Source: a virus (taxonomy: Duplodnaviria > Heunggongvirae > Uroviricota > Caudoviricetes). From it: a stretch of DNA of 19,102 nt. A program made the translations under genes and the position numbers. The stretch is from IMG/VR virus record IMGVR_UViG_2630968705_000015. One strand, written 5' to 3'. Below, one piece after another: positions 319 through 17,330 of the stretch (its first letter is position 1; the number at the start of each line of letters is the position of its first letter). The notes below the pieces were generated by a model that was not told where the DNA came from, searched no databases, and worked only from the letters and a program-made list of their open reading frames with translations.

Positions 319-550
319 GAATAGATTCAAGACTACCATGGACACATCCATTTTTATCTCTGATAAGGTATTCTTCAACACCATTATTGAATGTGAGTAA
401 TAATGACAAGCAGATAGATGAAACTACAGCAGAATTTTTATTTTATGCGGCTATCAGAAAATGATGGCATAAATATTCCTATGCTTTAGCTTCATTTTTT
501 GTAAGCGTCAAACATGCGCGTTCTGGCTGTGCGTAGCCGGACCCTGTGCG

Positions 551-583
551 AGCACGATGCCGTTAAGTGAAAGGCATCGTGCT
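551..583. repeat. Perfect 11-bp inverted repeat (AGCACGATGCC / GGCATCGTGCT) with 11-nt loop
   Basis: Read directly from the sequence. No flanking T-run on either strand, so not a canonical intrinsic terminator. A weaker hairpin (GGAAGGA ... TCCTTCC) follows at about 614-656. Confidence 0.5.
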
Positions 584-666
584 ATGAAGGGGAATTCTAT
601 CGATATGGTCAATGGAAGGAGGTAACCCGGTATGAATCCTTCCTTCTGTTTCATTGAATTACGCAT

Positions 667-693
667 AAAAAATAAGCCCGTGTAAGGGAGATT
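667..693. other. P2 attachment-site core at attL, identical to the 3' end of the cyaR (ryeE) sRNA gene
   Basis: AAAAAATAAGCCCGTGTAAGGGAGATT matches the 27-bp P2 att core as I recall it, and is the reverse complement of the CyaR 3' terminator (...AATCTCCCTTACACGGGCTTATTTTTT). Sequence to the right diverges from cyaR and runs into int. Confidence 0.75.
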
Positions 694-772
694 TAGGGTG
701 TCACCAGTAGGGGCTTTCAACGGTACAATGCGGGTTTGAGCGGCATAAATTACCACTGAAAGCCCTTAAACG

Positions 773-1786
773 TTACTCTACTGTGGACACTGTGTGGACA
801 CTCTCGGCTTCAGTACCACCTCTTAGCGGATTAAGAGAAATGGCGTCCTGAAGGTACTCTGGCGCAAAATGAGCGTAAACCATAGTTTGCTCAATCCGCG
901 TGTGACCTAGTATCCGTTGTAGCGTGATAATACTTCCTCCATTAATCATGAAATGAGTGGCAAAGCTGTGCCTTAGTGCATGTGTGGCTTGCCCCGTTGG
1001 CAAATCCGGTTTTATTGCTTTCATTGTTCGTCTGAAGCGAGGGTAATCAGCATCAGGGAATAAAAAACCTCGTTTGTTATCCGCGATCATTTTGGCAACA
1101 GCCTCTGAGATCGGGACGGTGCGTGGTTTGTTTGTTTTCGTTTTAACAAACGTGACGCGGTTATGGATGATATTTTCTGCTTTCAAACGAGCTGCTTCTC
1201 CCCAACGTGCTCCTGTACTCAGGCAAAGAATCGCAATCTTTTTATTGTCGCCGTCAAGTGCTGCAAGCAGTAAGGCAATTTCTTCCTGTGTGAGATAGCC
1301 TGTTTCTGGTTTTTCCTCCTTAAGCCTCTTTGTCCCTCTGATAGGGTGCTCACCAAAGAATAACTCCGCTTCAATCAGGGCTGTAAACATGCCGCTAATA
1401 CATGTTAAATCACGATTGATACTCGAAGGTTTAATACCCTGACTTCTTCGGGTGGCGCAGTACTGGCTGATAAGGGATTTCGTGATTTGAAATGCGCATG
1501 GGTCATTCGTTATTTTTGTGAAGATTTCAATTTTTCCAAGATTAGATTTCCCATGCTCTTCGTGTTTACCCTTTAAATCCCACCAGATCTGTGTCAGTTC
1601 CGACAGACGTCGTTTGTCTGTTGGTTTTGATAGCCATTCTTTATTGTGGTGGTTGTACAACGTGTATTTTTCGAAAGCGACAGCTTCGCTTTTCTTATCA
1701 AACTTCCTACGGATGCGTTTTCCGTTACGTCCAGTAGGGCGGATGTCCACTTCATATCGACCATCATCGAGTTTTTTGATTGCCAT
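773..1786 (-). CDS. int: Tyrosine integrase (P2 Int-like, 337 aa)
   Basis: ORF track. C-terminal HALRHSFATHF ... LGHTRIEQTMVYAHF fits the tyrosine-recombinase R/H-x-x-R/Y pattern. Adjacent to att core. GGAGGG ribosome-binding site upstream of the ATG. Confidence 0.9.
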   Translation of the reverse strand: MAIKKLDDGRYEVDIRPTGRNGKRIRRKFDKKSEAVAFEKYTLYNHHNKEWLSKPTDKRRLSELTQIWWDLKGKHEEHGKSNLGKIEIFTKITNDPCAFQITKSLISQYCATRRSQGIKPSSINRDLTCISGMFTALIEAELFFGEHPIRGTKRLKEEKPETGYLTQEEIALLLAALDGDNKKIAILCLSTGARWGEAARLKAENIIHNRVTFVKTKTNKPRTVPISEAVAKMIADNKRGFLFPDADYPRFRRTMKAIKPDLPTGQATHALRHSFATHFMINGGSIITLQRILGHTRIEQTMVYAHFAPEYLQDAISLNPLRGGTEAESVHTVSTVE

Positions 1787-1901
1787 CAGAAAACCCTCCG
1801 AGTGGTACTTTTTTTTGCTACTACTAATCGCTTTTTTCGTGGTGGCTGAAATTTAGCCACCAATAGTAGGCACTTGTGATGAATATATTCACGATAAATT
1901 G

Positions 1902-2201
1902 TTAACCAGTCTTTTGACCGGAGTGGGGCGACGTTGTTTCGTTTTGCCCAAAGTGTGCGAGAGCGGGCGCAATTTGCCCGGCTTCTGGAGCTACCTGATC
2001 AGTCATGAACCACAAAGTATATTTAGTAAATCTGGGATGTTGTAAGACCTTCATTATGGCTTCAACTCCAGCGTTTTTTGACCGGCTCTCATAGCTCGAA
2101 AGTGAGCTGTAGGCTACACCAGTTAATTCACTGAATTCTTTACGGTTTAACCTTTCAGATTCACGGATTAGCTTCAACTTCTCCGAAACGTCTATTGACA
2201 T
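1902..2201 (-). CDS. C: Immunity repressor (P2 C-like, 99 aa)
   Basis: Track ORF 1902..2273 starts at TTG. Internal ATG at 2199-2201 has a GGAG site 5 nt upstream and gives 99 aa. Helix-turn-helix-like segment QQ/KEFSELTGVAYSSLSSYE. Divergent from cox. Confidence 0.75.
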   Translation of the reverse strand: MSIDVSEKLKLIRESERLNRKEFSELTGVAYSSLSSYESRSKNAGVEAIMKVLQHPRFTKYTLWFMTDQVAPEAGQIAPALAHFGQNETTSPHSGQKTG

Positions 2202-2322
2202 AATTACTCCGATTGCGTAATTTCTTGCTGATTGTGTGAAATGTTGTGCTTCTGGAGTTATCCTTTTAGGCAATAATTAGCCATTAGGAGCCATTAGAAG
2301 CACTAATGGAGAATCGTAGCAG
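2202..2322. promoter_or_regulatory. Lysis-lysogeny switch region between C and cox, with repeated AGCCATTAG elements
   Basis: 121-bp gap between divergent C and cox starts. Direct repeats AGCCATTAG at 2279-2287 and 2289-2297, plus an inverted copy CTAATGG at 2303-2309. Promoters Pe/Pc not resolved. Confidence 0.5.
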
Positions 2323-2598
2323 ATGAATAGACAGCTTGTAAGCGTGACTGATGCCGTGCCTTATCAGGAGTTTGCAAAACTCATTGGTAAAACTCCAAGA
2401 GCTGTAAGGGGCATGATTGAGAAAGGGAAATTACCAGTTATTGAGATTACTGACCCTCAGTCAGTATCGGGGCGTGCTGGTGAATATTGGGTATACCTTC
2501 CGGCATGGAATAACGGACTAAAACTGGCTTATGAAAGCCGTCCTAAAGAGATTCGTGACGGCTGGTTGATGTGGTTAGGTCTCGGTGAACCACGTTAA
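2323..2598 (+). CDS. cox: Cox-like excisionase / transcriptional regulator (91 aa)
   Basis: ATG at 2323. 91 aa as in P2 Cox. First gene of the rightward early operon, opposite C. Confidence 0.8.
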   Translation: MNRQLVSVTDAVPYQEFAKLIGKTPRAVRGMIEKGKLPVIEITDPQSVSGRAGEYWVYLPAWNNGLKLAYESRPKEIRDGWLMWLGLGEPR

Positions 2599-2608
2599 GG
2601 AGAACCGT

Positions 2609-2779
2609 ATGAATGAGCCTCGTTGTATTGCTCAGTTATTGCGTAACGAAAGCCCCAGGGCGATTGACTTCACCATCACCCACGGTAAGGGGCGTAAGGG
2701 AATCATTATCCGCACCAAAAAACAGAGTCCGTTAAAAAAGGCTCTGACCTTTCTGAAAAGCCGGAGGGTCTGGAAATGA
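2609..2779 (+). CDS. Small early protein of unknown function (56 aa)
   Basis: Track ORF starts at GTG 2585. ATG at 2609 follows an AAGGAG site at 2596-2601 with 7-nt spacing. Stop overlaps the B start (ATGA). Sits where P2 has a small ORF between cox and B. Confidence 0.5.
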   Translation: MNEPRCIAQLLRNESPRAIDFTITHGKGRKGIIIRTKKQSPLKKALTFLKSRRVWK

Positions 2780-3276
2780 CAGTGATGACGCTCAATCTCG
2801 TTGAAAAACAGCCAGCAGCTATGCGCCGGATAATTGGCAAGCATCTTGCCGTCCCTCGCTGGCAGGATACATGTGATTATTATAATCAGATGATGGAACG
2901 CGAACGGCTAACGGTTTGCTTCCATGCGCAGTTAAAACAGCGTCACGCAACGATGCGTTTTGAAGAAATGAACGACGTCGAACGTGAACGGCTGGTTTGT
3001 GCAATTGATGAATTGCGTGGGGCATTCTCAAAACGCCGTCAGGTTGGCGCAAGTGAGTATGCATATATTAGTTTTTTAACAGTCAGTCAGCGTCGTACTT
3101 TATTTATGCATGCCGGATTGACTGAAAAAGAATTCAACCAGCCATACTGGCGAATTAATGAAGAATCATGTTACTGGCGTGATGCTTTATTCCGTGCATT
3201 ACGTGAATTATTCAGCCTGTTTGAGTATGCACCGACAATTCTGACGTCGGTAAAACCAGAGCAATATCTGCATTAA
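2776..3276 (+). CDS. B: P2 B-like replication protein (166 aa)
   Basis: ATG at 2776 after a GGAGGG site. 166 aa equals the remembered P2 gpB length. Position between cox and A. Confidence 0.75.
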   Translation: MTVMTLNLVEKQPAAMRRIIGKHLAVPRWQDTCDYYNQMMERERLTVCFHAQLKQRHATMRFEEMNDVERERLVCAIDELRGAFSKRRQVGASEYAYISFLTVSQRRTLFMHAGLTEKEFNQPYWRINEESCYWRDALFRALRELFSLFEYAPTILTSVKPEQYLH

Positions 3277-3339
3277 ATAATTAACCAGAGTTTTTAACGC
3301 ACTTAATCGTGCGGGGCTTCTTTTTGCCTGGAGAAAGTC

Positions 3340-3564
3340 ATGCATACAGTTTCTGAAAATCAGTGCGGTAAATACGCATTACTGCTGCAACAGGCCAGAA
3401 CCGAAGCACAGGCCGACGCTGCGACGCGCTTTTCTTCTCATCTTGACGCCATGATTCGCCACATCACAAAGGCGGAGTTATCCCGCGTGGAGATAGTCGA
3501 GCTGCTCAGTCAGGAGTCGGAAAAATTTCACAACATCGGATTGTCTCGCGGGGAGGTGCTTTGA
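3340..3564 (+). CDS. Hypothetical early protein (74 aa)
   Basis: ATG at 3340 preceded by GGAGAAAG. Stop overlaps the next start (TGATG). Confidence 0.55.
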
Positions 3565-3863
3565 TGTCCTGTTCTCGTTCAGTTGTTTTACTGAACAATG
3601 CCTTAAAAATCGTCGTTATGAAAAATGGCGATTTGTCTCTTATTCAACTTGGTCTTGATAAAGAAAAACGCGAAATAACTGAATCTGTTATCGCGATTTA
3701 TCAGAGTGAATTAAACCTCCTGTCTGATGTGGTCAATTTACTTGTTAAACGCGCTGTATTTCACAAGCAAATTTCCTCAGTGGATGAACTGACAAAATTA
3801 ACGACAGAACTTGCCAGTTATTGCGCTGATGTATCCAGGAAACTTAACGATAAAAGGAGCTGA
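3564..3863 (+). CDS. Hypothetical early protein (99 aa), AT-rich
   Basis: Track start is TTG 3561. ATG at 3564 follows a GGGAGGTG site. Locally AT-rich compared with neighbouring genes. Confidence 0.55.
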   Translation: MSCSRSVVLLNNALKIVVMKNGDLSLIQLGLDKEKREITESVIAIYQSELNLLSDVVNLLVKRAVFHKQISSVDELTKLTTELASYCADVSRKLNDKRS

Positions 3864-3865
3864 TA

Positions 3866-4090
3866 ATGCCGGACAACGTAGATTTTATTCAGGAACAACA
3901 GGCTGAATTACTGGAGCGCCAGATTAACGCGGCAAGGGTAAAACATTGCGGTGCTTCTGCGCTGGTTTGCGAAGAGTGTGACGCGCCAATACCTGCTGCC
4001 CGTCGTGCGGCTTACCCGTCAGCCACGCGTTGTGTTTCCTGTCAGTCAGTCTTTGAAGCAAAAAACAAACATTACCGGAGAACGGCATGA
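3866..4090 (+). CDS. TraR/DksA-family C4 zinc-finger protein (74 aa)
   Basis: AAAAGGAG site then ATG at 3866. Motif CEEC-x17-CVSC matches the DksA/TraR CxxC-x17-CxxC finger. Confidence 0.65.
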   Translation: MPDNVDFIQEQQAELLERQINAARVKHCGASALVCEECDAPIPAARRAAYPSATRCVSCQSVFEAKNKHYRRTA

Positions 4091-4362
4091 GTATTCGTAT
4101 TGAAATTGGCGAACGTTATGTCGTTACCAGTGACAGCTTTCAGTTTATTCTCCACGAGAAAAAGAGAGCGGAAAGCGGTAAAAACGCCGGTCAGGAATGG
4201 CTGGCGGTGGTTGGTTATTACCCGAAATTAAGCCAGCTCGTTTCCGGCCTGATGCATCACGATATTCTGACCGGAAGCGCAAAGTCTTTTGCTGATTTAA
4301 ACGCGCAGGTTGAGCAACTCAGCAAGCGTTGTTCAGAGGCTTTTGGCTCATATGGCCGTTAA
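4087..4362 (+). CDS. Hypothetical early protein (91 aa)
   Basis: ATG at 4087 overlapping the upstream stop (ATGA), GGAG upstream. Last small ORF before A. Confidence 0.55.
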   Translation: MSIRIEIGERYVVTSDSFQFILHEKKRAESGKNAGQEWLAVVGYYPKLSQLVSGLMHHDILTGSAKSFADLNAQVEQLSKRCSEAFGSYGR

Positions 4363-6475
4363 AGCCTCCGGGCGTTTTGTCCCTCCGTCAGCATTTGCCG
4401 CAGGCACCGGTAAGACGTTTACCGGTGCTTACGCATGGAACGCGCCACGCGAGGCCGTCGGGCGCGAAAGACCCCTTACACGTGACGAGATGCGTCAGGT
4501 GCAAGGTGTTTTATCCACGATTAACCGCCTGCCTTACTTTTTGCGCTCGCTGTTTACTTCACGCTATGACTACATCCGGCGCAATAAAAGCCCGGTGCAC
4601 GGGTTTTATTTCCTCACATCCACTTTTCAGCGTCGTTTATGGCCGCGCATTGAGCGTGTGAATCAGCGCCATGAAATGAACACCGACGCGTCGTTACTGT
4701 TTCTGGCAGAGCGTGACCACTATGCGCGCCTGCCGGGAATGAATGACAAGGAGCTGAAAAAGTTTGCTGCCCGTATCTCATCGCAGCTTTTCATGATGTA
4801 TGAGGAACTCAGCGATGCCTGGGTGGATGCGCATGGCGAAAAAGAATCGCTGTTTACGGATGAGGCGCAGGCTCACCTCTATGGTCATGTTGCTGGCGCT
4901 GCACGTGCTTTCAATATTTCCCCTCTCTACTGGAAAAAATACCGTAAAGGGCAGATGACCACGAGGCAGGCATATTCTGCCATTGCCCGTCTGTTTAACG
5001 ATGAGTGGTGGACTCATCAGCTTAAAGGCCAGCGTATGCGCTGGCATGAGGCGTTACTGATTGCTGTCGGGGAGGTCAATAAAGACCGTTCTCCTTATGC
5101 CAGTAAACATGCCATTCGTGATGTGCGTGCACGCCGCCAGGCAAATCTGGAATTTCTTAAATCGTGTGATCTCGAAAACAGGGAAACCGGCGAGCGCATC
5201 GACCTTATCAGTAAGGTGATGGGCAGTATTTCTAATCCTGAAATTCGCCGGATGGAGCTGATGAACACCATTGCCGGTATTGAGCGTTATGCCGCAGCAG
5301 AGGGTGATGTGGGGATGTTTATCACGCTGACCGCGCCGTCAAAGTATCACCCGATACGTCAGGTCAGAAAAGGCGAAAGTAAAACCGTCCAGCTAAATCA
5401 CGGCTGGAACGATGAGGCATTTAATCCAAAGGATGCGCAGCGTTATCTCTGCCGTATCTGGAGCCTGATGCGCACGGCATTCAAGGATAATGATTTACAG
5501 GTCTACGGTTTGCGTGTCGTCGAGCCACACCACGACGGAACGCCGCACTGGCATATGATGCTTTTTTGTAATCCGCGCCAGCGTAACCAGATTATCGAAA
5601 TCATGCGTCGCTATGCGCTCAAAGAGGATGGCGACGAAAGAGGAGCCGCGCGAAACCGTTTTCAGGCAAAACACCTTAATCGGGGCGGTGCTGCGGGGTA
5701 TATCGCGAAATACATCTCAAAAAACATCGACGGCTATGCACTGGATGGTCAGCTCGATAACGATACCGGCAGACCTCTGAAAGATACTGCCGCGGCTGTT
5801 ACTGCATGGGCGTCAACGTGGCGCATCCCGCAATTTAAAACGGTTGGTCTGCCGACAATGGGGGCTTACCGTGAACTACGCAAATTGCCGCGCGGCGTCA
5901 GCATTGCTGATGAGTTTGACGAGCGCGTCGAGGCTGCACGCGCCGCCGCAGACAGTGGTGATTTTGCGCTGTATATCAGCGCGCAGGGTGGGGCAAATGT
6001 CCCGCGCGATTGTCAGACTGTCAGGGTCGCCCGTAGCCCGTCGGATGACGTTAACGAGTACGAGGAAGAAGTCGAGAGAGTGGTCGGCATTTACGCGCCG
6101 CATCTCGGCGCGCGTCATATTCATATCACCAGAACGACGGACTGGCGCATTGTGCCGAAAGTTCCGGTCGTTGAGCCTTTGACTTTAAAAAGCGGCATCG
6201 CCGCGCCTCGGAGTCCTGTCAATAACTGTGGAAAGCTCACTGGTGGTGATGCTTCGTTACTGGCTCCCACACCTTCTGAGCACGCCGCAGCAGTGCTTAA
6301 TCTGGTAGATGACGGTGTTATCGAATGGAATGACCCGGAGGTCTTGAAAGTGCTTAATCTGGCATTGAAAATAGAAGCATCACGTAAATGTACAAACAAA
6401 GGAGACACACGAGCAGGCATAGTTGGCGAGTCAACCGCGATTTTCAATGTACAGGATGCTGATAATCAACAATGA
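4352..6475 (+). CDS. A: Rolling-circle replication initiator (P2 A-like)
   Basis: HUH-type motif PHWHMM (about 5543-5560) and tyrosine motif GYIAKYISK (about 5697-5723), typical of RCR initiators. Start uncertain: track gives TTG 4310; first in-frame ATG is 4352, overlapping the upstream stop. Confidence 0.8.
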   Translation: MAVKASGRFVPPSAFAAGTGKTFTGAYAWNAPREAVGRERPLTRDEMRQVQGVLSTINRLPYFLRSLFTSRYDYIRRNKSPVHGFYFLTSTFQRRLWPRIERVNQRHEMNTDASLLFLAERDHYARLPGMNDKELKKFAARISSQLFMMYEELSDAWVDAHGEKESLFTDEAQAHLYGHVAGAARAFNISPLYWKKYRKGQMTTRQAYSAIARLFNDEWWTHQLKGQRMRWHEALLIAVGEVNKDRSPYASKHAIRDVRARRQANLEFLKSCDLENRETGERIDLISKVMGSISNPEIRRMELMNTIAGIERYAAAEGDVGMFITLTAPSKYHPIRQVRKGESKTVQLNHGWNDEAFNPKDAQRYLCRIWSLMRTAFKDNDLQVYGLRVVEPHHDGTPHWHMMLFCNPRQRNQIIEIMRRYALKEDGDERGAARNRFQAKHLNRGGAAGYIAKYISKNIDGYALDGQLDNDTGRPLKDTAAAVTAWASTWRIPQFKTVGLPTMGAYRELRKLPRGVSIADEFDERVEAARAAADSGDFALYISAQGGANVPRDCQTVRVARSPSDDVNEYEEEVERVVGIYAPHLGARHIHITRTTDWRIVPKVPVVEPLTLKSGIAAPRSPVNNCGKLTGGDASLLAPTPSEHAAAVLNLVDDGVIEWNDPEVLKVLNLALKIEASRKCTNKGDTRAGIVGESTAIFNVQDADNQQ

Positions 6476-6596
6476 TAGCTATTGTGACTATGCTAACCAT
6501 ATGAATCTATTGTGTGATTATGAGTAATGACTTTTTCTAATATTTGATTTTTAATGTAGTAACTTAGCTAATTTTAAAATTTGTAAAAGGATGTTT
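6476..6596 (+). promoter_or_regulatory. AT-rich intergenic region, presumed promoter of the SIR2/HerA cassette
   Basis: About 120 bp of very AT-rich DNA after the A stop, with several TTGnnn / TAnnnT hexamers (for example TTGATT 6544-6549, TAAAAT 6575-6580). No promoter could be assigned unambiguously. Confidence 0.3.
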
Positions 6597-7844
6597 ATGT
6601 CGATTTATCAAGGTGGTAACAAGTTAAATGAGGATGATTTTCGTTCTCACGTTTATTCCTTGTGTCAATTAGATAATGTTGGCGTTCTGTTAGGTGCTGG
6701 TGCTTCTGTCGGTTGTGGTGGGAAAACGATGAAAGATGTATGGAAATCGTTTAAGCAAAACTACCCTGAGCTTTTGGGAGCACTTATTGATAAATATCTT
6801 CTGGTTTCGCAAATTGATTCTGATAACAATTTGGTCAATGTTGAACTTTTGATAGATGAAGCAACTAAATTTCTTTCTGTAGCTAAAACTAGACGATGTG
6901 AAGATGAAGAGGAGGAATTCAGAAAGATATTAAGTTCATTATATAAAGAGGTTACGAAGGCTGCATTATTAACAGGAGAACAGTTTAGAGAGAAAAATCA
7001 GGGTAAAAAAGATGCGTTTAAATATCACAAAGAGTTAATTTCAAAATTAATTTCAAATAGACAGCCCGGTCAGTCGGCTCCGGCAATTTTTACAACAAAT
7101 TATGATTTGGCCTTAGAGTGGGCTGCAGAAGATTTAGGAATACAGTTGTTTAATGGTTTTTCTGGGCTACATACACGGCAGTTTTATCCCCAGAATTTTG
7201 ATTTGGCTTTCAGAAATGTAAATGCGAAGGGCGAAGCAAGATTCGGACATTATCATGCGTATCTCTATAAATTACATGGCTCACTTACGTGGTATCAAAA
7301 TGATAGCTTGACTGTTAACGAAGTTAGTGCATCTCAAGCATATGATGAATATATTAATGACATAATCAATAAAGATGACTTTTATCGCGGTCAACATTTG
7401 ATTTATCCAGGGGCGAATAAATATAGCCATACAATCGGCTTCGTTTATGGAGAGATGTTTAGACGTTTTGGGGAGTTTATTTCGAAACCTCAAACAGCGT
7501 TGTTCATAAATGGGTTTGGTTTCGGTGATTATCATATAAATAGAATAATATTAGGCGCGTTACTGAATCCATCTTTCCATGTTGTTATATATTATCCTGA
7601 ATTGAAAGAAGCAATTACCAAAGTAAGTAAGGGTGGCGGTTCGGAAGCTGAGAAAGCTATTGTTACTTTAAAAAATATGGCTTTCAATCAAGTAACTGTA
7701 GTTGGGGGAGGAAGCAAGGCATATTTTAATAGTTTCGTAGAACATCTACCATACCCTGTGCTCTTTCCACGAGATAATATTGTTGATGAGTTGGTTGAAG
7801 CAATTGCTAATCTTTCTAAAGGAGAAGGTAATGTCCCTTTTTAA
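6597..7844 (+). CDS. SIR2-like (sirtuin-family, predicted NAD+-hydrolysing) defence protein
   Basis: Motifs LLGAGAS (about 6694-6708), FTTNYD (about 7092-7106) and KLHGS (about 7273-7284) correspond to the GAGxS / TTNYD / HG signature of SIR2-like domains such as Thoeris ThsA. ATG at 6591 or 6597; 6597 has better spacing from the AAAAGG site. AT-rich. Confidence 0.8.
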   Translation: MSIYQGGNKLNEDDFRSHVYSLCQLDNVGVLLGAGASVGCGGKTMKDVWKSFKQNYPELLGALIDKYLLVSQIDSDNNLVNVELLIDEATKFLSVAKTRRCEDEEEEFRKILSSLYKEVTKAALLTGEQFREKNQGKKDAFKYHKELISKLISNRQPGQSAPAIFTTNYDLALEWAAEDLGIQLFNGFSGLHTRQFYPQNFDLAFRNVNAKGEARFGHYHAYLYKLHGSLTWYQNDSLTVNEVSASQAYDEYINDIINKDDFYRGQHLIYPGANKYSHTIGFVYGEMFRRFGEFISKPQTALFINGFGFGDYHINRIILGALLNPSFHVVIYYPELKEAITKVSKGGGSEAEKAIVTLKNMAFNQVTVVGGGSKAYFNSFVEHLPYPVLFPRDNIVDELVEAIANLSKGEGNVPF

Positions 7845-9663
7845 ACTTACTGAAATCTCGGCTATTGGATACGTTGTAGGATTAGAAGGGGAAAGAATTA
7901 GGATAAACCTGCATGAGGGGTTGCAAGGCAGATTAGCATCGCATAGAAAGGGGGTGAGCTCAGTAACGCAACCAGGAGATCTTATTGGGTTCGATGCAGG
8001 TAATATATTAGTTGTCGCAAGAGTGACAGATATGGCATTTGTTGAAGCGGATAAAGCGCATAAGGCAAATGTAGGCACATCTGATTTAGCTGATATACCT
8101 CTAAGACAAATTATCGCCTATGCAATTGGCTTTGTGAAAAGGGAGTTAAATGGTTATGTTTTTATATCAGAAGATTGGCGCTTACCTGCATTGGGTTCTT
8201 CTGCTGTTCCTTTGACTTCAGATTTTTTGAACATCATTTATAGTATTGATAAAGAAGAACTCCCAAAAGCGGTTGAATTAGGTGTGGATTCTCGAACTAA
8301 AACCGTTAAGATATTTGCAAGTGTTGATAAATTATTGTCGCGACACTTAGCCGTTCTTGGTAGTACAGGATATGGTAAATCAAATTTCAATGCTTTGTTA
8401 ACGAGGAAGGTTTCTGAAAAATACCCTAACTCAAGAATAGTTATTTTTGACATAAATGGTGAATACGCGCAAGCTTTTACAGGTATTCCAAATGTAAAGC
8501 ACACTATTCTAGGGGAATCCCCAAATGTTGATAGTTTGGAAAAAAAGCAGCAAAAGGGTGAGCTATATAGTGAAGAGTATTATTGTTATAAAAAGATACC
8601 ATATCAGGCATTAGGTTTTGCTGGGTTAATTAAATTATTAAGACCAAGTGATAAAACACAATTGCCCGCATTAAGAAATGCATTAAGTGCAATTAATCGG
8701 ACTCATTTTAAAAGCCGTAATATTTACTTGAAAAAAGATGATGGTGAAACTTTTCTTTTGTATGATGATTGTCGTGACACAAATCAAAGTAAATTGGCTG
8801 AGTGGTTGGATTTATTAAGGCGTAGACGTCTTAAAAGAACGAATGTATGGCCACCGTTTAAAAGTTTAGCGACTTTGGTTGCTGAATTTGGATGTGTAGC
8901 TGCTGACCGTTCTAATGGAAGTAAACGTGACGCGTTTGGTTTTAGTAACGTGTTGCCATTGGTAAAAATCATACAACAACTTGCAGAGGATATAAGATTT
9001 AAATCTATTGTTAATTTAAATGGAGGGGGTGAGCTAGCAGATGGTGGAACGCATTGGGATAAAGCTATGAGTGATGAAGTTGATTACTTCTTTGGTAAGG
9101 AAAAAGGACAAGAAAATGATTGGAATGTTCATATAGTTAATATGAAAAATTTGGCACAAGATCATGCTCCAATGTTACTTAGTGCATTGTTGGAGATGTT
9201 TGCTGAGATACTATTTAGACGTGGGCAGGAACGTTCGTATCCTACGGTACTTTTGTTGGAAGAAGCGCATCATTACCTGCGTGACCCTTATGCTGAAATT
9301 GACTCACAGATTAAAGCATATGAACGACTTGCTAAAGAAGGTAGGAAATTCAAATGCTCTTTAATTGTCAGTACTCAGCGACCCTCAGAGCTTTCTCCTA
9401 CTGTTTTGGCAATGTGTTCAAACTGGTTTTCGTTACGTTTGACTAATGAAAGAGATTTACAGGCTCTCAGATATGCAATGGAAAGCGGTAATGAACAAAT
9501 CTTAAAACAAATATCAGGTTTACCAAGAGGTGATGCTGTTGCATTTGGTTCTGCATTTAATTTGCCTGTAAGAATTTCAATTAATCAAGCAAGGCCAGGG
9601 CCAAAATCTTCAGATGCTGTTTTTTCTGAAGAATGGGCTAATTGTACAGAATTACGTTGTTAA
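7831..9663 (+). CDS. HerA/FtsK-like P-loop ATPase, partner of the SIR2-like protein
   Basis: Walker A GSTGYGKS (about 8359-8382), Walker B VLLLEEAHHY (about 9247-9276), STQRPSEL motif, and a roughly 175-aa N-terminal domain before the P-loop. Track start is TTG 7780; ATG 7831 follows an AAAGGAGAAGG site and overlaps the SIR2 stop by 14 nt. ATG 7783 is an alternative start. Confidence 0.8.
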   Translation: MSLFKLTEISAIGYVVGLEGERIRINLHEGLQGRLASHRKGVSSVTQPGDLIGFDAGNILVVARVTDMAFVEADKAHKANVGTSDLADIPLRQIIAYAIGFVKRELNGYVFISEDWRLPALGSSAVPLTSDFLNIIYSIDKEELPKAVELGVDSRTKTVKIFASVDKLLSRHLAVLGSTGYGKSNFNALLTRKVSEKYPNSRIVIFDINGEYAQAFTGIPNVKHTILGESPNVDSLEKKQQKGELYSEEYYCYKKIPYQALGFAGLIKLLRPSDKTQLPALRNALSAINRTHFKSRNIYLKKDDGETFLLYDDCRDTNQSKLAEWLDLLRRRRLKRTNVWPPFKSLATLVAEFGCVAADRSNGSKRDAFGFSNVLPLVKIIQQLAEDIRFKSIVNLNGGGELADGGTHWDKAMSDEVDYFFGKEKGQENDWNVHIVNMKNLAQDHAPMLLSALLEMFAEILFRRGQERSYPTVLLLEEAHHYLRDPYAEIDSQIKAYERLAKEGRKFKCSLIVSTQRPSELSPTVLAMCSNWFSLRLTNERDLQALRYAMESGNEQILKQISGLPRGDAVAFGSAFNLPVRISINQARPGPKSSDAVFSEEWANCTELRC

Positions 9664-9820
9664 TTACCTGATGTACATGGCTAGTGCAAGTTGGTAGCGC
9701 ATGTCTATATGCATTTATTTGCATGTGTTTTATTGAGTGAGCGCACAAGCTTGATGACCCGACAGGTATGTATTTAGACTGAATTTACACCTGCATTAAA
9801 ACCGCCCCACGAAGCGGGCG

Positions 9821-9839
9821 GGCGAGGCGGGGAAAGCAC
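9821..9839. other. cos cohesive-end sequence (P2-type 19-nt GC-rich site)
   Basis: GGCGAGGCGGGGAAAGCAC matches the P2 cohesive end as I recall it. Lies between the variable locus and the end of Q, as in P2. Confidence 0.65.
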
Positions 9840-9848
9840 TGCGCGCTG

Positions 9849-9953
9849 GCGGTGGTGCGGATTTTATTTTTTCAGCGTCTCAGCGCGTCGTGACGGCGCT
9901 TAGTCTGCCCGTTGAGGCGTTGGTGTGTCTGCGGGGTATTTTGTGCGGTGGTG
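9849..9953. repeat. Direct repeat GCGGTGGTG (9849-9857 and 9945-9953) in G-rich DNA flanking cos
   Basis: Read directly from the sequence. Possibly terminase-recognition elements; function inferred only. Confidence 0.3.
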
Positions 9954-9980
9954 AGCGTGTGAGGGGGTGATGACGGGGTG

Positions 9981-10003
9981 TAAAAAAGCCGCCCGCAGGC
10001 GGC
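9981..10003 (-). terminator. Rho-independent terminator after Q (minus strand)
   Basis: Minus-strand reading GCCGCC-TGCG-GGCGGC followed by TTTTTT, directly after the Q stop codon. Confidence 0.6.
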
Positions 10004-10008
10004 GATGT

Positions 10009-11043
10009 TCAGCCGTTGTCAGTGTCCAGTGAGTAGTTTTTAAATCGGATGACCTCCTGACCGAGCCAGCCGTTTATTTCGCGGATCCTGTCCTGTAACG
10101 GGATAAGCTCATTGCGGACAAAGACCTTTGCCACTTTCTCAATATCACCCAGCGACCCGACGTTCTCCGGCTTGCCCCCCATCAACTGAAAGGGGATGCG
10201 ATGCGCGTCCAGCAGGTCAGCGGCGCTGGCTTTTTTGATATTAAAAAAATCGTCCTTCGTTGCCACTTCACTGAGCGGGATAATTTTAATGCCGTCGGCT
10301 TTCCCCTGTGGGGCATAGAGAAACAGATTTTTAAAGTTATTGCGGCCTTTCGACTTAACCATGTTTTCGCGAAGCATTTCGATATCGTTGCGATCCTGCA
10401 CGGCATCGGTGACGTACATGATGTATCCGGCATGAGCGCCGTTTTCGTAATACTTGCGGCGGAACAGCGTGGCCGACTCATTCAGCCAGGCAGAGTTAAG
10501 GGCGCTGAGATATTCCGGCAGGCCGTACAGCTCCTGATTAATATCCGGCTCCAGCAGGTGAAACACGGAGCCGGGTGCGAAGGCTGTCGGCTCGTTGAAG
10601 GACGGCACCCACCAGTAAACATCCTCTTCCACACCACGGCGGGTATATTTTGCCGGTGAGGTTTCCAGTCTGATGACCTTACCGGTGGTGCTGTAACGCT
10701 TTTCCAGAAACGCATTACCGAACACCAGAAAATCCAGCACAAAGCGGCTGAAATCCTGTTGCGAAAGCCACGGATGCGGGATAAACGTTGAAGCCAGAAT
10801 ATTACGTTTGACGTAAATCGGTGAGCTGTGATGTACGGCAGCACGCAGGCTTTTTGCCAGACCGGTAAAGCTGATCGGCGGCTCATACCATCTGCCGTTA
10901 CTGATGCACTCGACGTAATCCAGAATGTCACGGCGGTCGAGTACCGGCACCGGCTCACCAAAGGTGAATGCCTCCATTTTCGGGGCGCTGGCGGTGATTG
11001 TTTTTGCCGCAGGTCGCGGTGTTTTCCCTTTTTTCTTGCTCAT
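10009..11043 (-). CDS. Q: Portal protein (P2 Q-like, 344 aa)
   Basis: ORF track. 344 aa as in P2 gpQ. Start overlaps the P stop by 1 nt. First structural gene after cos. Confidence 0.85.
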   Translation of the reverse strand: MSKKKGKTPRPAAKTITASAPKMEAFTFGEPVPVLDRRDILDYVECISNGRWYEPPISFTGLAKSLRAAVHHSSPIYVKRNILASTFIPHPWLSQQDFSRFVLDFLVFGNAFLEKRYSTTGKVIRLETSPAKYTRRGVEEDVYWWVPSFNEPTAFAPGSVFHLLEPDINQELYGLPEYLSALNSAWLNESATLFRRKYYENGAHAGYIMYVTDAVQDRNDIEMLRENMVKSKGRNNFKNLFLYAPQGKADGIKIIPLSEVATKDDFFNIKKASAADLLDAHRIPFQLMGGKPENVGSLGDIEKVAKVFVRNELIPLQDRIREINGWLGQEVIRFKNYSLDTDNG

Positions 11044-12815
11044 CAGTAAAACTCCAGAATGGTGGATGTCAGCGGAGTGCTGATACCGGCGGTGAGTGGC
11101 TCATTTAACAGAGCGTGCATGGTCGCCCAGGCGAGGTCGGCGTGGCTGGCTTCCTCGCTGCGACTGGCCTCATAGGTGGCGCTGCGTCCGCTGCTGGTCA
11201 TGGTCTTTCGGATAGCCATAAACGAGCTGGTGATGTCGGTGGCGCTGACGTCATATTCCAGACAGCCACGGCGGATAACGTCTTTTGCCTTGAGCACCAT
11301 TGCGGTTTTCATTTCCGGCGTGTAGCGGATATCGCGCGCGGCAGGATAGAACGAGCGCACGAGCTGGAACACGCCGACACCGAGGCCGGTGGCATCAATA
11401 CCGATGTATTCGACGTTATATTTTTCGGTGAGTTTGCGGATGGATTCAGCCTGGGTGGCAAAGTCCATGCCTTTCCACTGGTGACGCTCAAGTATTCTGA
11501 ATTTACCTCCGGCCACCACCGGCGGTGCCAGCACCACGCATCCGGCGCTGTCGCCACGGTGTGACGGGTCGTAACCAATCCATACCGGGCGGGAGCCGAA
11601 CGGATTGGCGGCAAACGGCGCATAGTCTTCCCATTCTTCCAGCGTGTCGACCATGCAGCGTTGCAGCTCCTCGAACGGGAACACCGACGCCTTGTCGTCA
11701 ACAAATTCACACATGAACAGGTTTTTAAAATCGTCGGCGCTGTTTTCGCGTTTAAGCTGCTCAATGTCGAAGAGCGTGCAGCCGCCTTTCAGGGCGTCCT
11801 CAATGGTGACAATCTGCCGCCACTGGCCGTCCGCACAGAGAAGCCCACCGGCAAGGGCGTTATGACTGACGTCGATTTCCACGCGTTCGGCGGCGCTGGC
11901 GCGTCCCCGGTTGAACAGTTCACCCGACCAGAACGGGTAGGCGTCGTGCGCCAGCGTGGACGGGGTGGAGAAATAGGTCGAGCGCAGGTGACTCTGTGAG
12001 GCCATACCTGATGCCACCTTACGCAGTACCTGAAAATTCGGTATCCAGAAAATCTCGTCGACGTACAGGTCGCCGTTATGGCTCTGCGCGGTGTTGGAGT
12101 TGGTGCCGAGAAAAATCAGTTTTGCGCCGTTATTGCCCAGGACAATCGGGTCACCGGTCAGGTCAACGTCAACCAGCCGGGCAAAGGCGATGATGTATTC
12201 GCGGAACACATACGCCTGCGTTTTACTGGCCGACAGAAAAATCTGGTTATGACCGGTTTTCAGGGCGCGCAGCAGCGCCTCGCGGGAAAAATAAAACGTC
12301 GCGCCAATCTGGCGGGATTTCAGGATATCGCGGATGCGGTGCTCAAGCCCGGCGCGATACCAGTGCAACTGATAGTCGAAAGACTGCTCAAAGAAAATCT
12401 GCTCCAGCTTTTCGATAGCCTCGTCACTGAAAAAATTCTTTTTCGGTTTGCGACGCCCGCCTTTGTTGCGGTTAGCGACGTTCGGATTAAGGTCTGCCTC
12501 GTTGCCGGTCTGGCTGTAACGGTTGACCCGTGCCAGCCGTTCAATCTGGCGTCCGAGCAGGTCAATTTCCTTGAAGTCACCGCCGGTTTTCTGCGGTTTG
12601 ATGATGAGCTGGGTCAGCCGCGCTTCCAGACTCATTTCGACACGGCTGATGGGGGCAACGCTGTCCCAGCCGTCGCGCTGTTTCCAGCTCTGCACCGTCG
12701 GGCGTTTCATCTGCAACATGGCGGCAATCTGCGGCACGGAAAACCCCTGCCAGTACAGCAGCGCCGCCTGACGACGCGGGTCGTGTAAAAGAGTGGTGTC
12801 TGTGGTGATGGTCAT
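11043..12815 (-). CDS. P: Terminase large (ATPase) subunit (P2 P-like, 590 aa)
   Basis: Track ORF starts at TTG 12845. Internal ATG at 12813-12815 with a GAGG site gives 590 aa, the remembered P2 gpP length. Divergent from O. Confidence 0.85.
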   Translation of the reverse strand: MTITTDTTLLHDPRRQAALLYWQGFSVPQIAAMLQMKRPTVQSWKQRDGWDSVAPISRVEMSLEARLTQLIIKPQKTGGDFKEIDLLGRQIERLARVNRYSQTGNEADLNPNVANRNKGGRRKPKKNFFSDEAIEKLEQIFFEQSFDYQLHWYRAGLEHRIRDILKSRQIGATFYFSREALLRALKTGHNQIFLSASKTQAYVFREYIIAFARLVDVDLTGDPIVLGNNGAKLIFLGTNSNTAQSHNGDLYVDEIFWIPNFQVLRKVASGMASQSHLRSTYFSTPSTLAHDAYPFWSGELFNRGRASAAERVEIDVSHNALAGGLLCADGQWRQIVTIEDALKGGCTLFDIEQLKRENSADDFKNLFMCEFVDDKASVFPFEELQRCMVDTLEEWEDYAPFAANPFGSRPVWIGYDPSHRGDSAGCVVLAPPVVAGGKFRILERHQWKGMDFATQAESIRKLTEKYNVEYIGIDATGLGVGVFQLVRSFYPAARDIRYTPEMKTAMVLKAKDVIRRGCLEYDVSATDITSSFMAIRKTMTSSGRSATYEASRSEEASHADLAWATMHALLNEPLTAGISTPLTSTILEFY

Positions 12816-12988
12816 GAATACCTCGCCGTGATGAATACACGGCAAGGCTACTGAGTCGCGCCCCGCGATTCGCTAAGGTGCTGTTGTGTCAGTGATAAGC
12901 CATCCGGGACTGATGGCGGAGGATGCGCATCGTCGGGAAACTGATGCCGACATGTGACTCCTCTAATCACTATTCAGGACTCCTGACA
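12816..12988. promoter_or_regulatory. Divergent late-promoter region between P and O
   Basis: Position equals the P2 PP/PO region. I searched for the Ogr-type TGT-N12-ACA dyad and found no exact match, so no promoter is placed. Confidence 0.35.
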
Positions 12989-13843
12989 ATGGCAAAAAAA
13001 GTCTCAAAATTCTTTCGTATCGGCGTTGAGGGTGACACCTGTGACGGGCGTGTCATCAGTGCGCAGGATATTCAGGAAATGGCCGAAACCTTTGACCCGC
13101 GAGTCTATGGTTGCCGCATTAACCTGGAACATCTGCGCGGCGTCCTGCCTGACGGTATTTTTAAGCGTTATGGCGATGTGGTCGAACTGAAGGCCGAAAA
13201 GATTGACGATGATTCGGCGCTGAAAGGCAAATGGGCGCTGTTTGCGAAAATCACCCCGACCGATGACCTTATCGCGATGAACAAGGCCGCGCAGAAGGTC
13301 TATACCTCAATGGAAATTCAGCCGAACTTTGCCAATACAGGCAAATGTTATCTGGTGGGTCTGGCCGTCACCGATGACCCGGCAAGCCTCGGCACGGAAT
13401 ACCTGGAATTCTGCCGCACGGCAAAACACAACCCCCTGAACCGCTTCAAATTAAGCCCTGAAAACCTGATTTCAGTGGCAACGCCCGTTGAGCTGGAATT
13501 TGAAGACCTGCCTGAAACCGTGTTCACCGCCCTGACCGAAAAGGTGAAGTCCATTTTTGGCCGCAAACAGGCCAGCGATGACGCCCGTCTGAATGACGTG
13601 CATGAAGCGGTGACCGCTGTCGCTGAGCATGTGCAGGAAAAGCTGAGCGCCACTGAGCAGCGACTCGCTGAGATGGAAACCGCCTTTTCCGCACTTAAGC
13701 AGGATGTGACTGACAGGGCGGATGAAACCAGTCAGGCATTCACCCGCCTGAAAAACAGTCTCGACCACACCGAAAGTCTGACCCAGCAGCGCCGCAGCAA
13801 AGCCACCGGCGGTGGCGGTGACGCCCTGATGACGAACTGCTGA
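12989..13843 (+). CDS. O: Capsid scaffold protein (P2 O-like, 284 aa)
   Basis: Track ORF starts at 12923. ATG at 12989 gives 284 aa, the remembered P2 gpO length. Coiled-coil-like C-terminal region. Confidence 0.75.
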   Translation: MAKKVSKFFRIGVEGDTCDGRVISAQDIQEMAETFDPRVYGCRINLEHLRGVLPDGIFKRYGDVVELKAEKIDDDSALKGKWALFAKITPTDDLIAMNKAAQKVYTSMEIQPNFANTGKCYLVGLAVTDDPASLGTEYLEFCRTAKHNPLNRFKLSPENLISVATPVELEFEDLPETVFTALTEKVKSIFGRKQASDDARLNDVHEAVTAVAEHVQEKLSATEQRLAEMETAFSALKQDVTDRADETSQAFTRLKNSLDHTESLTQQRRSKATGGGGDALMTNC

Positions 13844-13901
13844 CCGGCGTCAGTCAGTCCGGGAAAACCTTCACGATTAACCCTTAATTTCAGGAAAAAC
13901 T

Positions 13902-14975
13902 ATGCGCCAGGAAACCCGCTTTAAATTTAATGCCTACCTGTCCCGTGTTGCCGAACTGAACGGCATCGACGCCGGTGATGTGTCGAAAAAATTCACCGTT
14001 GAACCGTCGGTCACCCAGACCCTGATGAACACCATGCAGGAGTCCTCTGACTTTCTGACCCGCATCAACATTGTGCCGGTCAGCGAAATGAAAGGGGAAA
14101 AAATTGGTATTGGTGTCACCGGCTCCATCGCCAGCACCACCGACACCGCCGGTGGCACCGAGCGTCAGCCGAAGGACTTCTCGAAGCTGGCGTCCAACAA
14201 GTACGAATGCGACCAGGTTAACTTCGATTTTTATATCCGCTACAAAACGCTGGACCTGTGGGCGCGTTATCAGGATTTCCAGCTCCGTATCCGTAACGCC
14301 ATTATCAAACGCCAGTCCCTTGATTTCATCATGGCCGGTTTTAACGGCGTGAAGCGTGCCGAAACCTCTGACCGCAACAGTAATCCGATGCTGCAGGATG
14401 TGGCGGTCGGCTGGCTGCAGAAATACCGCAATGAAGCCCCGGCGCGCGTGATGAGCAAGGTCACTGACGAGGAAGGTCGCACCACCTCTGAGGTCATCCG
14501 CGTGGGTAAGGGCGGTGATTATGCCAGCCTTGACGCACTGGTGATGGATGCGACCAACAACCTGATTGAGCCGTGGTATCAGGAAGACCCTGACCTTGTG
14601 GTGATTGTGGGGCGTCAGCTACTGGCGGACAAGTATTTCCCCATCGTTAACAAGGAGCAGGACAACAGCGAAATGCTGGCCGCTGACGTCATCATCAGCC
14701 AGAAACGCATCGGTAACCTGCCGGCGGTACGCGTCCCGTACTTCCCGGCGGATGCGATGCTCATCACGAAGCTGGAAAACCTGTCCATCTACTACATGGA
14801 TGACAGCCATCGCCGCGTGATTGAGGAAAACCCGAAACTCGACCGCGTGGAGAACTACGAGTCAATGAACATTGATTACGTGGTGGAGGACTACGCCGCC
14901 GGTTGTCTGGTGGAAAAAATTAAGGTCGGTGATTTTTCCACACCGGCTAAAGCGACCGCAGAGCCGGGAGCGTAA
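13902..14975 (+). CDS. N: Major capsid protein (P2 N-like, 357 aa)
   Basis: ORF track, ATG with AGGA upstream. 357 aa as in P2 gpN. Position O-N-M. Confidence 0.85.
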   Translation: MRQETRFKFNAYLSRVAELNGIDAGDVSKKFTVEPSVTQTLMNTMQESSDFLTRINIVPVSEMKGEKIGIGVTGSIASTTDTAGGTERQPKDFSKLASNKYECDQVNFDFYIRYKTLDLWARYQDFQLRIRNAIIKRQSLDFIMAGFNGVKRAETSDRNSNPMLQDVAVGWLQKYRNEAPARVMSKVTDEEGRTTSEVIRVGKGGDYASLDALVMDATNNLIEPWYQEDPDLVVIVGRQLLADKYFPIVNKEQDNSEMLAADVIISQKRIGNLPAVRVPYFPADAMLITKLENLSIYYMDDSHRRVIEENPKLDRVENYESMNIDYVVEDYAAGCLVEKIKVGDFSTPAKATAEPGA

Positions 14976-14978
14976 CCG

Positions 14979-15722
14979 ATGACGAGTCCCGCACAGCGCC
15001 ACATGATGCGGGTCTCGGCAGCGATGACCGCGCAGCGGGAAGCCGCCCCGCTGCGACATGCAACTGTCTATGAGCAGATGCTGGTCAAGCTCGCCGCAGA
15101 CCAGCGCACACTGAAAGCGATTTATTCAAAAGAGCTGAAGGCCGCAAAAAAACGCGAACTGCTGCCGTTCTGGTTGCCGTGGGTGAATGGCGTGCTGGAG
15201 CAGGGCAAAGGTGCACAGGATGACATTCTGATGACGGTCATGCTGTGGCGTCTGGATACCGGCGATATTGCCGGTGCGCTGGAGATTGCCCGTTATGCCC
15301 TGAAGTACGGTCTGACCATGCCGGGTAAACACCGCCGCACCCCGCCGTACATGTTCACCGAGGAGGTGGCACTTGCGGCCATGCGCGCCCACGCTGCCGG
15401 TGAGTCTGTGGATACCCGCCTGCTGACGGACACCCTCGAACTGACCGCCACGGCTGACATGCCTGATGAAGTGCGCGCAAAGCTGCACAAAATCACCGGT
15501 CTGTTTCTGCGTGACGGTGGTGATGCCGCCGGTGCGCTGGCGCACCTGCAACGTGCGACACAGCTCGACTGTCAGGCAGGCGTCAAAAAAGAGATTGAAC
15601 GACTGGAGCGGGAGCTGAAACCGAAGCCGGAGCCGCAGCCCAAAGCGGCCACCCGCACTCCGCGTAAGACCCGGAGCGTGACACCGGCAAAACGTGGACG
15701 CCCGAAAAAGAAAGCCAGTTAA
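14979..15722 (+). CDS. M: Terminase small (endonuclease) subunit (P2 M-like, 247 aa)
   Basis: ORF track, GGAG site. 247 aa. Basic lysine/arginine/proline-rich C-terminus. Confidence 0.8.
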   Translation: MTSPAQRHMMRVSAAMTAQREAAPLRHATVYEQMLVKLAADQRTLKAIYSKELKAAKKRELLPFWLPWVNGVLEQGKGAQDDILMTVMLWRLDTGDIAGALEIARYALKYGLTMPGKHRRTPPYMFTEEVALAAMRAHAAGESVDTRLLTDTLELTATADMPDEVRAKLHKITGLFLRDGGDAAGALAHLQRATQLDCQAGVKKEIERLERELKPKPEPQPKAATRTPRKTRSVTPAKRGRPKKKAS

Positions 15723-15821
15723 CAACCGAATGCGCCCCGCGCCAGGGCGGCACGCCGGTCAGTGACGGTGAATCACCTGACACTGCACCGGCGTCCACCG
15801 CCCGACTTTTCAGAGGTAGTC

Positions 15822-16331
15822 ATGATGACGCTGATTATTCCGCGAAAGGAGGCTCCCGTGTCCGGTGAGGGTACGGTGGTTATCCCGCAACCGGCAGGCG
15901 ACGAGCCGGTGATTAAAAACACGTTCTTTTTTCCCGATATCGACCCGAAGCGCGTCCGGGAACGTATGCGCCTTGAGCAGACCGTCGCCCCTGCCCGTCT
16001 GCGTGAGGCCATCAAGTCAGGCATGGCGGAGACGAATGCGGAGCTGTACGAGTACCGCGAACAGAAAATTGCTGCCGGTTTTACGCGTCTGGCGGACGTC
16101 CCGGCGGACGACATCGACGGTGAAAGCATCAAAGTTTTTTACTACGAGCGCGCCGTGTGTGCGATGGCGACCGCGTCACTTTATGAACGTTATCGCGGTG
16201 TGGATGCCAGTGCGAAAGGCGACAAGAAGGCCGACAGCATTGACAGCACCATTGATGAGCTGTGGCGGGATATGCGCTGGGCAGTGGCGCGCATCCAGGA
16301 CAAGCCGCGCTGCATCGTGAGTCAAATCTGA
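15822..16331 (+). CDS. L: Capsid completion protein (P2 L-like, 169 aa)
   Basis: Track ORF starts at GTG 15762. ATG at 15822 after a GAGG site gives 169 aa, the remembered P2 gpL length. Confidence 0.75.
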   Translation: MMTLIIPRKEAPVSGEGTVVIPQPAGDEPVIKNTFFFPDIDPKRVRERMRLEQTVAPARLREAIKSGMAETNAELYEYREQKIAAGFTRLADVPADDIDGESIKVFYYERAVCAMATASLYERYRGVDASAKGDKKADSIDSTIDELWRDMRWAVARIQDKPRCIVSQI

Positions 16332-16534
16332 TGAAGACCTTTGCGCTACAGGGCGACACGCTCGACGCCATTTGTGTCCGCTATTACGGGCGCACTGAGG
16401 GCGTGGTCGAGGCCGTGCTCGCCGCAAATCCGGGACTGGCTGAACTGGGGGCGGTGCTGCCACACGGCACCGCCGTCGAACTGCCCGACGTTCAGACCGC
16501 GCCCGTGGCTGAAACTGTCAATCTGTGGGAGTAA
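16331..16534 (+). CDS. X: Tail protein X (67 aa)
   Basis: ATG at 16331 overlapping the L stop (TGATG). 67 aa as in P2 gpX. Track ORF 16262..16534 is the same frame extended upstream. Confidence 0.75.
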   Translation: MKTFALQGDTLDAICVRYYGRTEGVVEAVLAANPGLAELGAVLPHGTAVELPDVQTAPVAETVNLWE

Positions 16535-16537
16535 CGC

Positions 16538-16819
16538 ATGACAGCAGAAGAAAAAAGCGTCCTGTCGCTTTTCATGATTGGGGTGCTGATTGTTGTCGGC
16601 AAGGTGCTTGCCGGTGGTGAACCCATCACCCCGCGTCTGTTTATCGGGCGCATGTTGCTCGGTGGTTTTGTCTCGATGGTTGCCGGTGTTGTTCTGGTGC
16701 AGTTTCCTGACCTGTCACTGCCTGCGGTGTGCGGCATCGGCTCCATGCTGGGTATCGCCGGTTATCAGGTGATTGAGATTGCCATTCAGCGCCGCTTTAA
16801 GGGCAGGGGGAAACCGTAA
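16538..16819 (+). CDS. Y: Holin (P2 Y-like, 93 aa)
   Basis: Hydrophobic transmembrane segments with a charged C-terminus. Directly upstream of the endolysin. GGAG site. Confidence 0.8.
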   Translation: MTAEEKSVLSLFMIGVLIVVGKVLAGGEPITPRLFIGRMLLGGFVSMVAGVVLVQFPDLSLPAVCGIGSMLGIAGYQVIEIAIQRRFKGRGKP

Positions 16820-17316: not shown

Positions 17317-17330
17317 ACGGAGTAAACACC

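Follow-up and report, generated by a model that had tools for sequence, protein, structure and literature searches.

We analysed a 19,102-nt stretch of DNA from a virus of the class Caudoviricetes (IMG/VR record IMGVR_UViG_2630968705_000015), hereafter the window, whose positions serve as coordinates throughout, and focused on the cargo carried between replication gene A and the cohesive end site cos of a P2-like prophage. Only two gene-like open reading frames (ORFs) of at least 60 aa were found in this block, and both encode defence proteins. The first, at 6597..7844 on the plus strand, is a gene of 415 aa for a SIR2-family NADase, as assigned from PDB identity, PADLOC, Pfam and RefSeq. The second, at 7831..9663 on the same strand, encodes a HerA-family ATPase of 610 aa, assigned from PDB identity, PADLOC and Pfam. 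The two genes are adjacent and co-oriented and overlap by 14 nt, an arrangement that may couple their translation. A preliminary description of this DNA had located the cassette and left its cargo unnamed; the PDB, PADLOC and Pfam matches assign it to a known defence system, SIR2-HerA.

The SIR2 protein was identical at 415 of 415 residues to the chain common to PDB entries 8J4U (8j4u_A), 8SU9, 8SUB, 8SUW, 8SXX, 8UAE and 8UAF. It matched the PADLOC SIR2 model PDLC02186 over its full length (E = 4e-190) and Pfam SIR2_2 (E = 4e-10), and it is held in RefSeq as WP_021577683.1, 'SIR2 family anti-phage-associated protein'. The RefSeq start is the ATG at 6597, with a Shine-Dalgarno-like AAAAGG 6 nt ahead. 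The HerA protein was identical at 609 of 610 residues to 8j4u_M, the partner chain of the same PDB entries, the sole change being K301, which is E in the solved protein; it also matched the PADLOC HerA model PDLC02185 (E = 2e-277) and the Pfam DUF87/HerA central domain (E = 2e-20). Motifs were present in both proteins, namely GAGAS (residues 33-37), TTNYD (166-170) and KLHGS (225-229) in SIR2, and Walker A GSTGYGKS (177-184) and Walker B LLLEEAH (474-480) in HerA. Their catalytic roles follow from general background on the SIR2 and ASCE ATPase families, together with the identity of both proteins to those of solved structure. The E. coli SIR2-HerA system was reportedly treated by Tang et al. 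and by Shen et al., both in Mol Cell in 2023. The cargo is a two-gene operon that codes for the SIR2-HerA ('Nezha') anti-phage system.

PDB 8J4U represents the E. coli Sir2-HerA system named 'Nezha' (PMC13434337), and 8SXX is called EcSir2 in a paper that also mentions a dodecameric SIR2 and hexameric HerA architecture (PMC11514289). According to PMC13434337, ATP inhibits the activities of Nezha and the loss of ATP that accompanies infection frees them, and on infection SIR2-HerA brings about a collapse of NAD+ that leads to abortive infection. The 12:6 assembly, the activities as NADase, ATPase, helicase and nuclease and abortive infection are properties reported for identical proteins (PMC13434337, PMC11514289).

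The block stands out from its surroundings in base composition. A sliding profile of guanine-plus-cytosine (GC) content formed a plateau of 0.33-0.40 at about 6400-9800, between values of 0.50-0.58 on the left and 0.50-0.63 on the right. The interval 6476-9820 has 36.6% GC, against 53.7% in the conserved part of A (4352-6347) and 56.9% in the late region (9792-19102). Codon usage gave the same contrast, with GC at third codon positions of 0.27 in SIR2 and 0.25 in HerA, compared with 0.56 in A, 0.64 in Q and 0.71 in P. The AT-rich cassette in a GC-rich backbone, estimated by eye in the preliminary description, was therefore borne out by both measures. A maximum-likelihood two-changepoint fit of GC over 4351-13000 placed the breaks at 6341 and 9801, with a log-likelihood of -5837 compared with -5986 for no break, a gain of about 149 units. 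Low GC is by itself non-specific evidence of acquisition at this locus, because all cargos examined there, including P2 tin/old (35.1%), have 33-41% GC.

We then located the breakpoints by alignment. A blastn comparison with the P2 A-cos-Q junction gave ungapped matches over 3318-6347 (97.7%) and 9792-11322 (97.1%). Because P2 homology stops at 6347 and restarts at 9792, window 6348-9791 (3,444 bp) stands in place of P2 30030-33545, which comprises the last 290 bp of A together with orf91, tin and old. Six further P2-like phages, picked because only their flanks matched the window, gave the same picture: homology on the left ended at 6347 (6354 in pro483), and homology on the right restarted at 9788-9793 in P2 and in five of the six. 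The sixth, pro147, had only a 57-nt match on the right (9791-9847), with continuous homology from 10085. In the multiple alignment, the nucleotide match decayed from 6343, with residual similarity to about 6370 and none past it, so the left edge of the swapped segment lies at about 6343-6347, within the A frame and about 130 nt before the A stop, and the right break lies 28-33 nt left of cos. The true extent of the swapped segment is about 6343-9791. A GC discontinuity had been placed at about 6476 and at 9760-9800; the right-hand boundary held, at 9788-9793, whereas the left-hand one had to be moved into A.

Between the common breakpoints 6347/6354 and 9788-9793, P2 and the six other phages carry seven alternative cargos. 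Apart from tin/old in P2, the slot held six unrelated ones: Fic/VbhT, Dcm with ParaMORC3, a cytolethal distending toxin, DUF4238, a reverse transcriptase with retron Ec48, and DUF4209. The segment has the A-to-cos/Q position, the conserved flanks and the interchangeable interior of the gpA-gpQ hotspot. Horizontal acquisition, previously argued from composition, can thus be seen directly as a replacement, since in other P2-like phages the same breakpoints enclose unrelated cargo. The preliminary description was also right that the cassette occupies the tin/old position of P2 and holds no tin- or old-like gene. Neither tblastn nor blastp gave a significant match of P2 Orf91, Tin or Old to the window or to the two cassette proteins, the best tin/old-query match being Old against HerA (E = 0.016, 71 aa, 30%), and no Old-type model was among the PADLOC matches.

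The distribution of the block among bacterial genomes defines it as a unit. The 3,345-bp interval was present at full length and at least 99.5% identity in 20 of 5,426 complete E. coli genomes, each time as a single copy on the chromosome. These 20 genomes, and no others, also contained the A tail with the upstream spacer (6348-6596) and the downstream spacer (9664-9791), the latter 100% identical in all of them. Because of this co-occurrence, the A tail, both spacers and both genes are one unit. The conserved cos-Q flank had 3,082 occurrences, spread over 2,153 genomes, so SIR2-HerA fills about 0.65% of cos-Q loci, near the 1% of Rousset et al. The window was identical to APEC E19025 (NZ_CP126931.1) at 19,101 of 19,102 positions, and its positions 400-19102 were identical to APEC E14033. 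When the window was compared with the copies in O18, O121 and a short contig (JAEYGZ010000011.1), the block differed by 0.2-0.6% and the adjacent A and Q-P regions by 1.6-3.3%, so that divergence in the flanks is 4-12 times that in the block. Expressed as identity between copies, the block reached 99.5-99.8% and the flanking A and Q-P 97.3-98.0%. This lower divergence reinforces the case for horizontal acquisition and fits recent exchange among diverged P2-like backbones.

The left breakpoint has consequences for gene A. Its conserved part, the left flank of the hotspot, occupies 4352..6342 on the plus strand, as delimited by the P2 alignment and by the RefSeq 'replication endonuclease' start at 4352, and as far as 6347/6354 it is 96.6-98.1% identical to the six further P2-like phages. 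The counterpart of the P2 ori nick site (P2 29892) is window 6210, upstream of the break, and is retained. Downstream, the alignment defines a variable tail at the 3' end of the A ORF (6343..6475, plus strand, about 44 codons, 40.6% GC), which retains residual likeness to other A genes to about 6370 and then runs into unrelated sequence and an early stop at 6475, the position given previously. The last 43 codons of the ORF (6348-6475, 40.6% GC) are part of the replaced segment. The window A has 707 aa, whereas lengths of 758-765 aa were seen in P2, STYP1, magyaro, pro147 and 569R9, five of the seven other phages compared. The A proteins of these five have a conserved stretch in common at the C-terminus (...RQQRNGSPLKPHEIAPSARLT...RWELEALARGATVNYDGKKFTYP...), which is missing in the window; because the left break falls inside the reading frame, the window A is without the conserved C-terminal ~95 residues. 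The A gene of pro483 is also shortened (723 aa). Within SIR2-HerA carriers, the shortening is specific to this E. coli lineage, because a Scandinavium prophage with a homologous cassette has a full-length A.

An exact 14-nt direct repeat, AGTGCTTAATCTGG, was also observed at 6292-6305 and 6349-6362, 57 nt apart and in frame, so that VLNL is encoded twice. The second copy begins 2 nt past the P2 homology break. P2, PhiR44_1, pro147 and 569R9 have the upstream copy only, and the P2-like phages otherwise have the first copy or none. The chance expectation for such a repeat in a 3.6-kb region is about 0.03; short-patch conversion and a templated junction event are possibilities for its origin.

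These features raise the question of what the swap did to the prophage. One could propose that the crossover inside A, with the 14-nt duplication marking the junction, removed the C-terminal ~95 residues of the endonuclease and so crippled replication, leaving a grounded prophage that was kept as a chromosomal defence island. The shortened protein is in line with this, as is the annotation of A by PGAP as 'incomplete, missing C-terminus' (a pseudogene ending at window 6370) in four of four RefSeq copies inspected; among defective P2 elements, GpA is also the core gene found most frequently as a pseudogene (PMC13586616). Among the matches listed, all 18 copies have the same backbone, and the four copies inspected lie between yegS/yegR and yegQ/trhP in E. 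coli. The element has the P2 gene order complete from int to ogr. Further lesions occur in some copies: gene S in APEC E19025 is split by ISEc12 (IS21 family, istA/istB), the junction at which the window ends (19102); another copy has a deletion from O to J; and the contig JAEYGZ010000011.1 has one from int to A. Against this, the A ORF is open to its stop and the ori position is kept, pro483, which was deposited as a phage, has a similarly short A, and the lower divergence of the block implies continuing exchange. In the NCTC11129 copy (NZ_LR134222.1, 1693497-1725787), moreover, each P2 gene from int through ogr other than A is annotated as intact; the same holds for the O121 copy, except for two genes that lay outside the regions fetched. 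Taking both sides together, we consider grounding of the prophage by this crossover doubtful. If it were true, that is, if the A tail were required for replication, this would be a documented case of a hotspot swap turning a prophage into a fixed defence island.

The individual copies differed in other details. The ISEc12 junction was seen in the fetched regions L003 (22609-22694) and L023 (1013-3704), and V to ogr continue past the insertion sequence. In the O18 copy (L004, NZ_CP007275.1), a deletion at 12514-13505 fuses capsid scaffold O to baseplate J and the HerA ORF is annotated 7 codons longer; this decayed prophage still has the defence pair. The 7,015-nt contig JAEYGZ010000011.1 (L012) joins an int fragment to A from residue 581 onward, followed by the SIR2-HerA block (99.4% nucleotide identity) and Q-P. 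It is labelled 'MAG: Bacillota bacterium' and is almost certainly a misbinned enterobacterial contig with a deleted prophage remnant. Genes for a 'hypothetical protein' also varied between copies (L024 24874-26175; L025 9559-10542 and 16266-17051; L023 3776-4561). They lie at the tail-fibre/sheath junction, the Z/fun position of P2, and between S and V, and several cargo slots therefore vary independently.

An autonomous mobile element, such as a transposon or an integron cassette, inserted into the prophage would account for the sharp boundaries of the block and for the exact direct repeat at its left junction. However, the two gene-like ORFs include no transposase or integrase, and a repeat search found no terminal inverted repeats or flanking target duplications spanning the block. 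In E. coli, the block never occurred outside the context of the prophage slot. Since the same two breakpoints bound unrelated cargos, the junctions seem to be set by the flanks and not by the cargo. An element of this kind is accordingly very improbable. The alternative of a conserved P2 core segment, with a low GC that reflects no more than local compositional noise, has nothing in its favour beyond a position collinear with P2, and it is refuted by the alignments, given the lack of homology across 6348-9791 to P2 or any of 50,697 phage records, the changepoint gain and the unrelated genes in the slot of other P2-like phages.

We therefore regard the low-GC segment as very probably a SIR2-HerA module that a P2-like prophage carries as cargo in its cos-proximal gpA-gpQ hotspot and acquired by recombination. 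Recombination in the flanks is favoured because no transposase, integrase, terminal inverted repeat or target duplication was found and because unrelated cargos share the junctions. The module would have arrived by recombination between co-resident P2-like genomes within their conserved flanks, with one crossover falling in the 3' end of A and the other some 30 nt to the left of cos, and it would have displaced an earlier cargo along with the conserved 3' end of A. Several points weigh against this explanation. The mechanism of the swap is inferred from the breakpoints only, and the anti-phage activity of the K301 allele of HerA in its native prophage is a prediction. The block was present in none of the 50,697 phage records, and so was not seen in an isolated virion. 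Finally, a promoter and terminator scan found no promoter or plus-strand terminator above background inside the block.

This last point concerns the spacers. An AT-rich spacer (6476..6596, plus strand, 24% GC) lies upstream of SIR2 and is the presumed site of the cassette promoter. Scanning 6300-10050 gave 11 promoter sites, with 11.9 expected, and no consensus sigma-70 site in 6476-6596. Because the scan called no such site there, a promoter in this spacer that is active during lysogeny is inferred rather than demonstrated. Two imperfect direct copies of CTATTGTG(A/T)(C/G)A(C/T)TATG were observed in 6476-6540, just past the A stop, and could represent a putative regulator-binding site. Downstream of HerA, a non-coding spacer (9664..9791, plus strand, 40.6% GC) ends the swapped block and has no homology to P2-like phages; terminator-like sites near the right end sit in the conserved P2 flank, outside the block. 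No family reached its gathering score in an Rfam scan of the whole window. The conserved right flank, set by the P2 alignment, starts with 9792..9839 on the plus strand and includes the 19-nt P2 cohesive end. This sequence, GGCGAGGCGGGGAAAGCAC, occurs once in the window, at 9821-9839 as previously described, and exactly matches both annotated P2 cohesive ends (cosL/cosR). The portal gene Q, the right-hand core gene of the hotspot, follows at 10009..11043 on the minus strand, as identified from its ORF, the P2 annotation and the RefSeq name 'phage portal protein'.

Homologous pairs were also found outside E. coli. A scan of species-representative genomes identified a P2-like prophage in Scandinavium lactucae whose corresponding slot holds a SIR2-HerA pair of 86% identity; a complete A lies upstream, the SIR2 start region AAAAGGGATGTTTATG is kept, and a further 401-aa ORF stands between HerA and Q. 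This ORF (L013 9673-10878, minus strand) has a pentapeptide-repeat-like N-terminus and a glycosyltransferase-like remainder, and represents a second cargo gene of the hotspot. Homologues in Vibrio (including V. cholerae ATCC 14035), Shewanella, Photobacterium, Marinomonas and Paraferrimonas have the same two-gene architecture at 56-61% amino acid identity. Unlike the window cassette, these pairs have no P2 genes within 6 kb and no composition break, the pair having 38.5-41% GC and its flanks 37-43%. They give a weak hint of an origin in lower-GC gammaproteobacteria, and only a hint, because every cargo at the hotspot has 33-41% GC.

The locus itself is well known. Rousset et al. (2022) surveyed the cos-proximal gpA-gpQ region across all E. 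coli genomes (1,650 arrangements at 18,150 loci), curated 169 systems and gave the old and tin genes of P2 as the reference cargo (PMC9122126). System 14 of their Table S5B, 'SIR2 | DUF87', is recorded at 188 loci and annotated 'SIR2 + HerA (Gao et al., 2020)' (PMC9122126). It has the same locus, flanking genes and two-domain architecture as the window cassette; its representative HerA is a diverged allele, with an N-terminus (MSHFKLSELS...) nearer to the Scandinavium protein than to the window HerA. A 2026 study of thousands of P2-like prophages described fast swapping and little linkage of defence with core genes (PMC13586616). Compared with P2 orf91-tin-old, the SIR2-HerA module fills the same slot with a segment of similar size (3,444 bp, against 3,516 bp in P2) and the same GC over the whole replaced segment (36.5% in both), and both are non-essential phage-exclusion cargo. 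The two differ in that tin/old has no sequence homology to SIR2-HerA, that the P2 genes tin and old read leftward, from a promoter close to cos, whereas SIR2-HerA runs rightward, co-directional with A, and that P2 has a full-length A whereas that of the window is shortened.

SIR2-HerA in the gpA-gpQ hotspot is thus already known as a system and as a locus, and the significance of the present result beyond annotation is small. The survey bounded the locus by annotated genes and did not report a break inside A (PMC9122126); in the literature examined, the swap cutting into the A frame is the only point not already described. The window encodes the same gene pair as the solved E. coli SIR2-HerA, with the order and 14-nt overlap matching RefSeq (WP_021577683.1 and an ATP-binding protein), and a P2-prophage location is not discussed in the papers examined on that system (PMC13434337, PMC11514289). 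The analysis assigns the E. coli SIR2-HerA/Nezha system, whose structure has been solved, to the P2 gpA-gpQ hotspot as its native genomic setting, and gives base-level limits for the exchanged unit, which comprises the genes, both spacers and the replaced A tail (6343-9791). The cut into A may bear on whether such prophages remain mobile.

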